Positions 14,881 through 46,440 of a DNA stretch of 64,000 bases are shown one piece after another. Numbering within the stretch: the stretch's first letter is position 1; the number at the start of each line of letters is the position of its first letter. The position numbers and the translations under genes are program-made. The stretch covers positions 320,001-384,000 of the forward strand of contig CAXTYC010000001.1 in assembly GCA_964248365.1 (NCBI GenBank), written 5' to 3'. The notes under the pieces are model-generated. The model saw only the letters and a list, made by a program, of their open reading frames with translations. It was not told the origin of the DNA and did no database searches. Source of the DNA: an uncultured Chroococcidiopsis sp. Lineage in GTDB: Bacteria; Cyanobacteriota; Cyanobacteriia; Cyanobacteriales; Chroococcidiopsidaceae.

Positions 14881-14989
14881 TGGTGCGTTAGCCAAAGCGT
14901 AACGCACTATATAGAATTGATTTAGACATATTAAGTATGTCACCCATGCCCACCAAGTTTGATAATGGTGGTGGGCATGGGTGGCATAC
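14881..14989. repeat. REP-like palindrome plus an empty inverted-repeat mini-element matching the RAYT flanks
   Basis: GTGCGTTA-GCCAAAGCG-TAACGCAC (14883-14907), then GTCACCCATGCCCACCA-13 nt-TGGTGGGCATGGGTGGC (14939-14985). Confidence 0.8.
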
Positions 14990-15155
14990 AAATAATGTAA
15001 ATGAAGCTCTTACTTTTTTGGAAATGCTGAGTAAGACGATATATAAACTTGCTTTCTTGAAGTTTGTAGAATCATAGCTAATTCCTCCTTTTGCTAGACG
15101 AGCAGCAGGGTACATAAGTAACAAAATGTATATTGGCACTATTAGGATTGAAATT

Positions 15156-15548
15156 ATGCATGAAGTATCACAAGAGCATATAAAGTTAGCAGAGGAACAC
15201 GCTATCCGCTCAAAGCAACAGGCGGAATCAACCCAAAAGTGTGGAAAGATTTTACAAGCTATGGGAGGGAAATACAGTGAGCATGGAAAGTTAGTAGAAG
15301 AATATGGTAAGGCTGCTCAAAAGCACGCCCAGGCTTCACTGGAACACGCCAAAGCCGCACAAGAGCAAGATGCACACTCAACAGAGGAATTTTTGCAAGC
15401 TTCACAGGAACACGTAAAGCACACACAGATACTAATGATGGCATCCAAGGAGTGTAGTAAGATAGCTAAGGAGCGAATAAACGAAAATAAGAAATTCTTG
15501 AGCAAAGAACGAGTATCTAATTCAGAATCAAAGCAGAATGTGGATTAG
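15156..15548 (+). CDS. His/Ala/Glu/Gln-rich helical hypothetical protein
   Basis: Open frame 15126-15548 with periodic His (EH/KH motifs); ATG 15156 preferred. Confidence 0.65.
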   Translation: MHEVSQEHIKLAEEHAIRSKQQAESTQKCGKILQAMGGKYSEHGKLVEEYGKAAQKHAQASLEHAKAAQEQDAHSTEEFLQASQEHVKHTQILMMASKECSKIAKERINENKKFLSKERVSNSESKQNVD

Positions 15549-18054: not shown

Positions 18055-18510
18055 ATGGACGCTTCTCGTTGTGTAATTGCCGTTGCCAAGTCTCCTCAAG
18101 ACTACCAAGCTTTTCGCATCAGTCCAAGTGCTACAAATAGATTAGCGATCGTATTTGATTCGGCAACTGCTAATATCTCTCTGACGGTTTGTGTAGAAAT
18201 TTTTGATGTGGGTGGGAAAACTCCCCCTAATCGTCATCAGTTCGCAGTAGAGATGTTTTTCATCCTCAAAGGAGAAGGAAGAGCAACTTGTGATGGTAAA
18301 ACTGTATCAATTGGGGCTGGAGACAGCATTTTAGTGCCTCCTACCGGAATTCATGAGATTGAAAACACAGGTTCGAGTCGTCTATATGCTTTGTGTATTA
18401 TGGTTCCGAATGAACATTTTGCCGAGTTGATTCGTAGCGGCACACCAGTCGAATTGGATGAAGAAGATATAGCCGTATTGCGTCGCTTACCTACACCTGT
18501 TTCATGTTAG
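18055..18510 (+). CDS. Cupin domain protein
   Basis: GGKTPPNRHQFAVEMFFILKGEG...GDSILVPPTGIHEIENTG. Confidence 0.9.
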   Translation: MDASRCVIAVAKSPQDYQAFRISPSATNRLAIVFDSATANISLTVCVEIFDVGGKTPPNRHQFAVEMFFILKGEGRATCDGKTVSIGAGDSILVPPTGIHEIENTGSSRLYALCIMVPNEHFAELIRSGTPVELDEEDIAVLRRLPTPVSC

Positions 18511-18817
18511 GCAAGAGTAGGTGCTGTTGATTATGGTTTAGAAGTTTCAACAGACCGGTTGACAGTGGTGTAGTTCAATCAGTTTGTTAAAGGGTTGGAT
18601 ACTGATTTGCTTGATGAACCACTAGTTTGCCTATTTGAAATGAGAGTCTATAGGACGCACACTATTTCCATTATAAATATATCAAACCAGAAATCTGATT
18701 TTTTGTCAAGTATCTGGGCAAGTTGAATTGCTGAGCTACGTTAATTTTTGTCTGCTGTTGTGGGAACACTGATATTAAGGTGGGCAAGGGTGGCAAACGT
18801 TATTTGGCTGCATTTAT

Positions 18818-19260
18818 ATGAATCCTAAGTTTACCCCGCTAGATTGTGATGATGATGTCGTACTCTTGGCAACAGATACTTTTAAAGTCAGTAGATTAAA
18901 GGAGTTGTATGAGCAAGGAATTAAAGATAAATTAAATAGCCATTTTTATAAATCCAATGATTTTTTTAGTGAAAGCGAATCTGTCTACAGCTTTTTTAGT
19001 AACATCTCGCTTGGCGCTGAAAGTATTAGCTTCAGTGAAATTCAATTTAACTCAATTAAAGATTGTCAGCTTCTCAAAATTGGCGGTAAAGCCTGGTAGA
19101 AAGGAAAGCTTAAAATTCAGATATGCGTATCACCTAATAGAAAAAACCCAGATAAAATCTGTCTAGAATTTTGTCCTGATGAACCGATTGAGCAGGAATC
19201 ACCTTTAGATGACCTGCGTAAGCTAGTAGAAAAGTTTGCCACCCATGCCCACCACATAAT
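18818..19260 (+). pseudogene. KGK domain gene with an in-frame amber stop
   Basis: ...CQLLKIGGKAW-TAG-KGKLKIQ...LEFCPDEP..ESPLDDLR continues in frame past TAG 19097-19099, and the 3' end runs into the repeat motif. Confidence 0.85.
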
Positions 19261-19339
19261 TAGGAAATACACCCACCAAAAAGCTAGTAGAAAAGTTTGC
19301 CACCCATGCCCACCAAAAACCATGTTCAAAAACAAGTAA

Positions 19340-19915
19340 ATGTCTGAATATCGTCGCGTGTATGTGCCAGGTGGAACTTTCTTTATCACCTTGGTAACTT
19401 ACCAACGTAAACCTTTATTCTCAAATCTAGAAAATATCTCAAAATTACGCTGTGCTGTAGCAACTGTTCGCTTCCAAATACCTTTTGAGATAATAGGTGC
19501 AGTCCTATTACCGGATCATATTCATTTCTTATGGACTTTACCTGCTGACGATCAAGCTTATTCCAAGCGAGTCGGACGGTTAAAGGTTTTATTTACACAA
19601 TCCTTGCGTGGCAAAGGGGCATTACTTCAAAATATATCACGTTCAAGATCCAAGCACCGTGAAAGTGATGTTTGGCAGCGTCGGTTTTGGGGACATACTA
19701 TTCGTAATGAGGCTGATTTTGAAAGGCATTTAGATTATATTCATTACAATCCGGTTAGGCATGGTTTTGTTTCATGTCCTCATCTGTGGGAGTATTCGAG
19801 TTTTGATAGGTGGGTGCAAAAAGGTATGTATAAAAATGATTGGTGCTGCAAATGTTTTGGTAAGGAATTGCTAGTACCTGAGTTTATAGGAATAGCGGAG
19901 AAAGTTGGGGAATGA
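19340..19915 (+). mobile_element. REP-associated tyrosine transposase (RAYT, HUH Y1 family)
   Basis: YRR..PGGTFFITLVT, LPDHIH (HUH), WQRRFW.H.IR, DYIHYNPV and WEYSSF. Flanked by a perfect 23-bp inverted repeat at 19239-19261 and 19940-19962. Confidence 0.92.
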
Positions 19916-19984
19916 GAAGGATTATGTGGTGAGGAATTGAATTATGTGGTGGGCATGGGTGGACGATTATCTGGTGGATATTGC

Positions 19985-20794
19985 CTACCCTACCAGGTTT
20001 TGAATTTGGGTTGGGGTTAATTCTTCGACATTACTGAAAATAGTAACTGCTCCTGCTGCTTTGAGGGTATCAGCATAAGCATTACGGCGCTCTGGTGTTG
20101 TTAGGACATGGGGTGGTAAAATTCCTACACCAATCCAAAGGCGATCGCTCGCGATCGCTCTTGCCTTTGCTACTGTATACATATCAGCTACCGTATCCCC
20201 TAGGTAAATGACTGGGGCTGCTTGGTTTAACTGATGCTGCTGTTCTAGCTGTTGTACTGTTGCTAATAGTCCTGTAGGATCGGGTTTACCTGGTGCATCT
20301 TCCATAGCAATTAACACTGGTGCATTTAAACCAAGGCGTTTTTCTAAAACGTAGGTAGCTGAGGCGCGAGTCGCCCCGCTAAAAAAGCCCCACAATATCC
20401 CTGCTGCACTAAGCTGTTCTAAATAGCTCAGGTTTAGTAGTAAGGGTTCCCCGCAGATATAACCTGTAAAATGATCAGGATCTGTCCCGCGATAACGAGA
20501 TTGAAAAAAAGCGACTATTGTGTCGTAGTTTAGCTCAAGAGCGGATCTTGATTGTCCCTGCGCTTCAAAGTAGCGATAAATTAATTCTTGGGATGCTTCC
20601 CAATCGTTGTTCCAGATGCCTTCTGACTTGAGGAAGTCAATATCTGTTTGTGTGGGACGGTAAGCTTTTGCCGTAAAATGCTCTACTGTGTCTGCGATCG
20701 CTCGTCGATAAGATCCCCCGACATCGCGGACTACACCGTCAATATCAAAAACTGCGATCGCTTTGACTCTTGGTTGTTTAAGTTGTTCAGTCAA
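19985..20794 (-). CDS. TIGR01548 family HAD hydrolase
   Basis: Motifs FDIDGVVRDV, WNNDW, GKPDP and GDTVADM. Confidence 0.9.
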   Translation of the reverse strand: MTEQLKQPRVKAIAVFDIDGVVRDVGGSYRRAIADTVEHFTAKAYRPTQTDIDFLKSEGIWNNDWEASQELIYRYFEAQGQSRSALELNYDTIVAFFQSRYRGTDPDHFTGYICGEPLLLNLSYLEQLSAAGILWGFFSGATRASATYVLEKRLGLNAPVLIAMEDAPGKPDPTGLLATVQQLEQQHQLNQAAPVIYLGDTVADMYTVAKARAIASDRLWIGVGILPPHVLTTPERRNAYADTLKAAGAVTIFSNVEELTPTQIQNLVG

Positions 20795-27464: not shown

Positions 27465-27485
27465 GGTGGGCATTGCCCACCCTAC
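27465..27485 (-). repeat. GTAG-type REP (further copies at 34423-34443, 46283-46299, 46380-46399; degenerate at 19973-19993)
   Basis: GGTGGGCAWTGCCCACCCTAC is the reverse complement of GTAG plus a palindrome. Confidence 0.85.
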
Positions 27486-34316: not shown

Positions 34317-34468
34317 ACTATAGAGGTTTTATTATTGATATTCGGTAAATATATTATTAAAGATACCCCCTTGACAAAGAAATTACAACAGATAACAGTT
34401 AAAAAAATAGTATAGGGCGTAAGGTGGGCAATGCCCACCCTACAGTTATAACCATCTTTATTTATTTA

Positions 34469-44701: not shown

Positions 44702-45670
44702 TGTCTTTCACCCAGCGCTTAACAACTGTTGACTGTCTGCCGCTATAGCATCTTTTTGCTCACAGGTCTATTTTTTAAATATTTTCTTCATTATTTAGAC
44801 CTTCTTTAAAAAAAAATTAGATTTTATCTTATCGTTATACACTGCAAATTTCTTACTGTCACAGTCCATTAATATTTTTATATGTAGAAATATGAAGAAA
44901 GAGGGGAGAACTCTTGTGTCCTACCTGATTATTCATCCCACTTTTTCCCCTAAACTACCTTAATGTTATGAAAGTTAATTTATATCACAGTCAATAGCTG
45001 GGCAGCTAGAGCAGTTATACTTGTATTAACTTGTATTAAATAATATTAAGTAGCCGTGTGAACTGACTGATTAGTATAAATGTTCTATTCAAGTTTGTCT
45101 TTGTCCTTAGCTGTGCGTTAGACTGGTTGGCGCTATCTGTCAGTTACCAGTTACCAGTTACCAATATCATCCTTCGCGCCTACCCCTTCGGGATCGCTGT
45201 GCTACACACTTCGCGCCTTCGCGCCTTCCCCCAATCGCCCTTAACCTCTAATAACCAATGACGATCAACACCTAGTATTTCATGGCTCAAATAGGATTGC
45301 TATAGTAAACTGAAACATTCTCTCATTGCCAAGCTAAGTTTAGAAATCAATAAATTATTTGTGTTTATCTGCGATTTCGTTTCCAAGCTATCAAGACCAA
45401 ATATTAATAATAAAAGCAAAAACCTCAAATAGTCTTTATCTTAAATTAATAATTTTATCTTTCAATTAAATTTCTAGATAAGCCGATATCCTTCTAGGCA
45501 GCAGTTATTTAAAAACTGTATAAGATGAAGATTGTTCCATAACCTAAAAATACAAGTCACCCATGCCCACATGACAAAAAATTTGTAATTGATGTAAATA
45601 AAAACTACCCAAGAAACAAATGTTATGACAATAAAAAATATATTTACATCTCAAAAAGCTTTTCACCAGA

Positions 45671-46245: not shown

Positions 46246-46440
46246 TTCTAAGTTTGCTATTACTACTACAAATGTAATTTAAGGTGGGCATTGCCCTACT
46301 AACTACTACTTTGTTGTCAGGTGGGCGAAGTGTGGTAGTACCACATTGGGTCGGGAATGTCCAACAAATATAATTTAACGTGGGCAATGCCCACCCTACG
46401 TTTACTAACTTGGAAATGAGGGTAGCCAAAAATTTATAAT

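Follow-up and report, generated by a model that had tools for sequence, protein, structure and literature searches.

The RAYT gene of an uncultured Chroococcidiopsis sp., a domesticated transposase gene, is enclosed by inverted copies of a short motif, M, that is not palindromic, and M copies also enclose the KGK-domain gene in front of it. The locus lies in a stretch of 64,000 nt that was analysed as a whole (the window), and it raises the question of what M is, how it came to lie there and whether it delimits the genes that it surrounds. In the preliminary description of this DNA, pairs of M were proposed to fold whole genes into stem-loops of single-stranded DNA (ssDNA), which the RAYT would then capture or shuffle in the manner of cassettes. 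The analogy behind this proposal is the integron, whose attC sites are folded single-stranded sites beside variable genes.

Motif M at the RAYT locus

Four M motifs had been described, at 18779 (+), 19238 (−), 19299 (−) and 19948 (+). All four are present, with one mismatch each in the copies at 18779 and 19948, but they are not the total for the window, which holds seven matches with up to two mismatches. Since only 0.01 would be expected, these matches are not due to chance. The perfect 23-nt inverted repeat that encloses the RAYT (19239-19261/19940-19962) and the 21/23 inverted repeat that encloses the KGK gene (18779-18801/19231-19253) exist as claimed, and M is indeed unable to fold alone (0 kcal/mol, two M copies, versus −7.9 kcal/mol for the canonical REP). 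The tags of the KGK pair point inward and those of the RAYT pair outward, showing that the two brackets are not one structure. The second M copy to the left of the RAYT (19295-19314) is a product of the 35-nt duplication. Elsewhere in the window, an open reading frame (15126-15548) for a 140-aa protein rich in His, Gln, Glu and Ala, with no Pfam match, adjoins the M-M doublet.

Table 1 Features of the RAYT locus and members of the REP family in the window
Feature	Position	Strand	Remarks
M-M doublet, tags outward	14935..14989		REPIN-like hairpin, −23.1 kcal/mol, z −7.4
Cupin gene	18055..18510	+	Left neighbour common to the locus here and in G005
M singlet 5' of KGK	18779..18798	−	One mismatch; minus-strand GTTT tag (18795-18798) directed toward KGK
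KGK-domain pseudogene	18818..19339	+	Pfam KGK on both halves; in-frame TAG at 19097-19099
35-nt direct duplication, 61-nt spacing	19220..19315	+	Absent from close relatives
GTTT-tagged M on the outer left side of the RAYT	19234..19253	+	Canonical REP exactly here in X2, X3 and X4
RAYT/TnpA-REP, 191 aa, subclass 2.2-like	19340..19915	+	Y1_Tnp; DHIH, YIHYNP; private E118G, K140R
Right arm of the 23-nt inverted repeat	19940..19963	−	Includes tagless M copy 19948-19963
Degenerate canonical GTAG REP	19973..19993	−	Tandem with the right M, directly beside the RAYT; overlaps the 3' end of the HAD gene
HAD hydrolase gene	19985..20794	−	Right neighbour common to the locus here and in G005
Canonical palindromic GTAG REP, parent form of M	27465..27485	−	Others at 34423 and 46283-46395
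Degenerate M singlet	45556..45571	−	Two mismatches

All four runs X1-X4, which are mixed samples, have CAG in place of the nonsense TAG of the KGK gene, and the gene is intact in contigs that are ~95% identical. Its own stop codon was lost because the tag changed from GTAG to GTTT (19234-19237), so that the frame now runs to 19339. In G005, the sister genome from the same genus, a KGK gene takes its stop codon from the GTAG tag (L002:899-902), and in genome G389 a canonical REP begins at the end of the KGK gene upstream of the RAYT (L104). KGK genes occur in 49 of the 61 genomes studied, often in tandem; the runs comprise 2-5 genes, frequently followed by a small gene that probably encodes an HNH-nuclease-like protein (L193-L222; G000:C22:64300-65100). 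A member of the REP family lies within ~300 nt of all 4 KGK loci of G005 and of 3 of the 4 loci here.

M is a genome-wide variant of the canonical GTAG REP

We found 91 exact copies of M in the genome, 161 within one mismatch and 181 within two, some of the last being chance matches inside genes; the canonical REP has 193 copies. M is thus a genome-wide repeat and no cassette end specific to this locus. The earlier link between M and the REP family of the RAYT stands. The two motifs have in common the inner 8-nt arm, the 11-13-nt spacer of their doublets and the tag-outward layout around the RAYT, and the M arm is the reverse complement of the canonical arm minus one base. Read on the opposite strand, M is the canonical GTAG REP with its tag-proximal arm exchanged for another, a variant that is lineage-specific and non-palindromic.

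Like GTAG REPs, M is short, multi-copy, extragenic and lineage-specific: 65 of 70 M singlets lie outside genes as called by a simple in-house (not a published) gene caller. Unlike them, it forms neither a palindrome nor a hairpin and has no GT[AG]G tag at its 5' end. On the C-rich strand, 128 of the 181 copies carry the tags GTAT (86), GTTT (32) or GTCT (10), and 2 carry GTAG. M gives rise to hairpins only as doublets, either with itself or with the canonical REP. Of the 272 clusters of M and canonical REPs, tag-outward pairs account for 24 (M-M) and 32 (mixed), canonical pairs for 19, and singlets for 70 (M) and 108 (canonical); ~40% of the M copies are singlets unable to fold. In 22 of 29 cases, adjacent tag-outward M pairs are 11-15 nt apart, a short spacer being a feature of REPIN doublets. 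The ends of the tight doublets (21 M-M, 24 mixed, 14 canonical; chi-square p = 0.18) behave as if they were drawn independently.

Each of the 16 positions of M is 88-100% conserved, also in singlets. Among copies with up to two mismatches, the mean number of mismatches is 0.47 for M in doublets (98 copies) versus 0.71 for singlets (52 copies). A second, CTAC-like foot is kept in 11 of 49 tagged M singlets, compared with a background of 4.9%. Beside the tag, 44 of 72 M copies and 87 of 133 canonical copies have an A; read from the other strand, both thus show the dinucleotide C|T, at which E. coli TnpA-REP cleaves according to a part of PMC8266576. M clusters are only weakly grouped within 2 kb (12 versus 6.6 ± 2.4 expected, RAYT locus included), and the values for the canonical REP are 8 versus 5.0.

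Some copies contain an element of ~30 nt at the REP centre, which has two sub-variants and is found with canonical as well as with M arms (contigs C2, C4, C7, C8, C11, C12, C14, C19, C26 and C38). The genome is also rich in heptamer tandem repeats and several other dispersed repeat families, and M doublets are nested in some of these.

An assembly artefact as the source of M is ruled out by point variants and by its presence in G005 and in an unrelated metagenome contig. A G-quadruplex in the G-rich strand of M is not favoured by the folding model. M is not half of a second palindromic family either, since the genome holds no palindrome with two M arms.

Relatives carry the canonical REP at some sites of M

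Within one mismatch, each of the 60 relatives has 0 or 1 copy of M, and the canonical REP is present in 31 of the 61 genomes, including all six congeners. Two single M matches in the species-genome collection lack REP context and look like chance; the same holds for five of the six metagenome matches, the sixth being a true mixed doublet (L127).

At the RAYT locus, the X2, X3 and X4 contigs have 10-11 letters of the canonical arm exactly between the positions that correspond to 19235 and 19306/19307, without the duplication; the X2 and X3 contigs are ~95% identical over the RAYT. In X3 and X4, a canonical REP is also found at or just before 18779, where G005 has no REP, showing that REPs on both sides of the KGK gene predate M there. 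The RAYT of G005 is 83% identical, and its locus preserves the order of cupin gene, KGK (two genes), RAYT and HAD gene; the REPs there are canonical, M being absent. The genomes G001-G004 have no cupin, KGK or RAYT gene beside the HAD gene. At a second KGK locus, M takes the place of the canonical REP that G005 has in the spacer between the KGK and HNH genes. The KGK-RAYT and KGK-HNH swaps left both neighbours as they were, which rules out M as a pure rearrangement scar.

We fetched 128 repeat sites of G005, of which 49 could be mapped in our genome, 34 of them canonical. At these 34 sites we found the canonical REP in 11 cases, M in 4, both in 2 and neither in 17. M thus occupies 6 of 34 canonical sites versus 2.2% of random spacers (p = 1e-4), and 5 of 33 when the RAYT flank is left out (p = 8e-4). 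We conclude that some M copies are the result of in-place conversion; new insertion of M probably occurs too. Of 145 M clusters, 5 could be mapped in 1.14 Mb of G005, 2 of them to sites with a REP and 3 to sites without (one of these being a chance match inside a gene). G005 has spread a different arm variant with 51 matches, 8 of which form 4 full palindromes, and no match to it was found in four other genomes or in ours. This variant occurs as half-replaced copies, full palindromes and doublets (loci L086-L095 and L129-L156). Since 13 of 14 of its sites are empty here, it points to new insertion rather than to conversion.

The RAYT has a substitution at a conserved tag-binding position

The nearest solved structure is that of E. 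coli TnpA-REP (4ER8, E = 7e-33). With DHIH at positions 59-62 and YIHYNP at 133-138, the protein has the HUH motif and the catalytic tyrosine of subclass 2.2, for which the motif table in PMC6006769 gives a DHLH-like motif and YIHYNP. The gene is present in a single copy between inverted, tag-outward REPs, which are M plus a degenerate canonical REP here and canonical in relatives. Arms of the same REP family lie within 170 nt of the gene in all 30 loci of the RAYT clade that we inspected, and none of the other 29 loci has M. Many RAYTs of the clade are flanked by a long-loop form of the REP with ~30-40 nt between the arms (L099-L102, L106-L109, L112-L117, L121 and L122). Our genome encodes a second RAYT, 46% identical and apparently frameshifted near its start, which is flanked by a different palindromic GTAG REP family (G000:C39:38300-39230).

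Five of the six guide-binding residues (W94, Q95, W99, E100, H101 and R104 in E. coli) are kept; the exception is E100, which corresponds to Gly118. The text on Fig. S11 in PMC6006769 lists E100 among the residues that bind GTAG. We scored position 118 in 152 of 153 homologues, as one fell outside the pattern: 150 have Glu there and one has Asp, and the RAYT studied here alone has Gly. Codon 118 encodes Glu in all four runs X1-X4. The change K140R is likewise private to this RAYT, and one or two changes at near-invariant sites are also found in 6 of the 13 other members of its cluster. According to the excerpted text of PMC3479197, E. coli TnpA-REP requires the hairpin and all four bases of GTAG. 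As M has neither hairpin nor GTAG, M alone should not be a substrate of an ordinary RAYT.

Arm exchange as the probable route by which M spread

The reading that we prefer, with a probability of roughly 60% on the basis of sequence comparison, is that M arose from the canonical REP and spread by RAYT-dependent exchange of arms onto existing copies. The new arm would have a single origin, the other arm having been copied in inverted orientation (or duplicated) and one base dropped. A RAYT bound to a canonical GTAG hairpin on ssDNA would then cut and rejoin the strand so that arms are exchanged, and some M copies may also have reached new sites as entire doublets or as singlets. The RAYT's own inverted repeat would be the ordinary REPtron layout after an arm swap. 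Arm exchange is supported by the tags and doublet spacers of M, by the presence of canonical REPs in relatives exactly at M sites, by the independent assortment of doublet ends, by the occurrence of the centre insert with both arms, by the second foot that singlets have kept, by the different arm that G005 has spread, by the REP family found at all inspected RAYT loci and by the orthoswitch as a precedent. On the other hand, M itself should not be a substrate of an ordinary RAYT, recombination without the RAYT would be equally expected to yield independent assortment, M sites are not all old REP sites (see the five clusters mapped in G005), the G005 variant sits mostly at sites that are empty here, no palindrome with two M arms has formed here although the G005 variant forms four, and the enrichment of M at gene-order breaks described below is not explained by the model itself.

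It is unlikely, in our opinion, that the RAYT was instead retargeted, i.e., that with Gly in place of Glu it tolerates GT[A/T/C]T tags in the absence of a local hairpin and has in M a new cognate element, which inserts in singlet and doublet form. The alignment of this position with a GTAG-binding residue of the E. coli enzyme, the restriction of Gly118 to this RAYT among the homologues, the conservation of M even in singlets and its presence on both flanks of the RAYT would all fit, but M seems to predate the substitution: a doublet of G005, whose RAYT has Glu, contains one M, another metagenome contig has the mixed doublet, and the runs with a Glu RAYT show loose ends and a joint that fit M elsewhere in these mixed samples. 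Furthermore, the C-terminal Glu that reads A3/G4 in E. coli (a passage of PMC3479197) is kept as E191, and the adjoining KGK gene has decayed in the same strain. Because M exists beside Glu enzymes, we treat retargeting as a lead only.

We consider a spread independent of the RAYT similarly improbable. Here, M would have multiplied by template switching and gene conversion at REP hairpins, and the copy that is not self-complementary, being more stable, would accumulate. A template switch would indeed produce such an arm, the canonical one in reverse complement with one base missing; the A/T polymorphism of the canonical centre recurs in the two main tags (86:32 in the tags versus 86:52 at the centre), and the RAYT has changes at two near-invariant sites. 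However, repeated independent switches would not all drop the same base, the homology at singlets amounts to 8 nt plus 2-3 nt, and five other congeners and other genomes rich in the canonical REP have no M family (0-1 copy each). Nor do the two changes imply decay of the RAYT, since such changes occur in almost half of the other cluster members.

M is enriched at breaks of gene order

The preliminary description led one to expect breakpoints between relatives at M, and this was borne out against G005; its refuting condition, that M shows no association with variable genes, does not hold. The comparison covers the fetched fifth of the G005 genome, i.e., 60 stretches of large contigs known to hold REPs. 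Gene order is broken at 20 of 23 spacers with M, compared with 7 of 17 spacers with canonical REPs only and 294 of 679 repeat-free spacers. For long-range breaks, M was found in 15 of 176 break spacers versus 3 of 444 conserved spacers (p = 1.4e-6); the values for the canonical REP were 4 of 176 and 11 of 444, and six other repeat motifs showed no enrichment in the same two sets. When spacers were matched for length and gene orientation, M was at breaks in 18 of 20 cases versus 11.0 expected (p = 0.0005). In G005, breaks likewise show an excess of that genome's own REPs (11 of 64 versus 16 of 444).

We polarised six junctions of our genome with outgroups. Two keep the outgroup order (one of them with an extra small gene), so that these breaks occurred on the branch to G005; two others had no counterpart among the congeners searched, and two are ambiguous; two junctions of G005 are absent from both outgroups. 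M may cause the joins or may mark spacers that are labile anyway, and the comparison is of one genome pair with small numbers. Rather tentatively, one can imagine that the RAYT trades REP half-sites between distant loci, sometimes together with flanking DNA, thereby reshuffling gene order, and that the Gly118 enzyme may also accept M. If the M arm is a tracer of REPs that were cut and rejoined, this would explain why breaks are marked by M and not by the canonical REP.

M pairs are unlikely to be the ends of gene cassettes

Our data do not support M pairs as cassette ends. Inward-facing M pairs within 3 kb are no commoner than expected if clusters are flipped at random (8 versus 5.5 ± 1.8, p = 0.14), and these brackets span 0.4-2.8 kb without a common size or gene type. 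Listing the genes between inverted pairs, as the preliminary description had proposed, yielded unrelated kinds: the KGK gene, genes for a malic enzyme and a haem peroxidase, a pair of polysaccharide genes, a block of four ORFs, an ABC transporter together with an acetyltransferase, a 122-aa ORF without a known family and two small ORFs. Variable junctions are enriched in M, as described above, which would suit cassettes, but in only 1 of the 11 locally variable intervals that contain M does a gene have M on both sides. The 122-aa ORF (G000:C24:7149-7885; no Pfam match) is absent from this place in G005 and has inward M copies on both sides, being the only cassette-like case besides KGK.

For the KGK gene itself, the two surrounding M copies are predicted to pair in a fold of the 475-nt stretch, but any two inverted 20-mers pair in a fold. 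M lies within 200 nt of 3 of the 4 KGK genes here, a REP doublet separates the two KGK genes in front of the RAYT in G005, and a KGK gene precedes the RAYT in 3 of the 30 inspected loci. Against this, the KGK gene is present at the locus without M in G005 and in the runs, and, common as KGK genes are among the genomes, a REP hairpin was found at only 5 of 61 scored KGK ends, 4 of them in G005 and G389. The cassette reading, to which we give very little credence, is already largely refuted, and the bracket around KGK is best explained as a chance outcome, with a REP on either side of a pre-existing gene.

Discussion

We regard M as a case of the known REP 'orthoswitch' that is unusual in lacking a palindrome and has probably spread by the exchange of arms, and we think a cassette system improbable. 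In contrast to integrons, we see no tyrosine recombinase, no array with one site per gene, no excess of brackets and no common cassette size here.

The locus resembles the REPtron of RAYT/TnpA-REP subclass 2.2 (Bertels group 2) with its GTAG REPs and REPINs, as characterized in parts of PMC6006769, PMC3116915 and PMC3479197: it has the HUH and Tyr motifs, a single-copy gene, inverted tag-outward repeats on both sides and a dispersed extragenic family with hairpin doublets. It differs from the REPtron of these texts in that the amplified and flanking unit has no palindrome or GT[AG]G tag, in its ~40% of non-folding singlets and in the Gly in place of a guide-site Glu. Neither the canonical REP nor M appears in the REP table of PMC6006769 as excerpted.

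As in the orthoswitch described in parts of Nunvar et al. 2013 (PMC3686654), an orthologous RAYT has a different REP class in a relative, and old and new classes coexist; the mechanism is left open in the corresponding passages. The classes tabulated there consist of a tag and a palindrome, whereas in our case one arm changes and the palindrome is lost, and, unlike in the cases of that text, the swap extends to sites distant from the RAYT. There is also a likeness to the TIRtrons (TIRYT) and REP heterodimers in the excerpted sections of Di Nocera et al. 2013 (PMC3733652), where genes encoding tyrosine transposases lie between inverted repeats other than REP hairpins, some flanking repeats form dispersed families with dimers, and mixed REP dimers are common. 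However, TIRtrons have flanking repeats unrelated to REPs, whereas M shares its arm, spacer and position with the canonical REP and comes from the GTAG REP that is cognate to its RAYT clade and that the other members of this clade have kept.

We did not find the M sequence in the papers searched; as figures, bioRxiv supplements and Elhai et al. 2008 were outside the search, an earlier listing is possible. Nor did the literature searched include a paper on arm exchange or cassette transport by RAYTs. The accessible part of a preprint (bioRxiv 2024.07.17.603846) reports that neither the E. coli RAYT gene nor eight REP regions were found to give circular DNA.

How REPs multiply and how RAYTs benefit their hosts is an open question, according to passages of PMC8266576 and PMC3686654. 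M has lost both features that define a REP, and yet it exists in ~150 well-conserved copies that are mixed freely with the parent form. It follows that the spreading unit need not be a hairpin. M likely records how REPs are copied, rather than a gene-cassette system. As a marked arm, it makes transfer traceable in vitro and across strains, and, should M be causally tied to the breaks of gene order, RAYTs would take part in the rearrangement of chromosomes.
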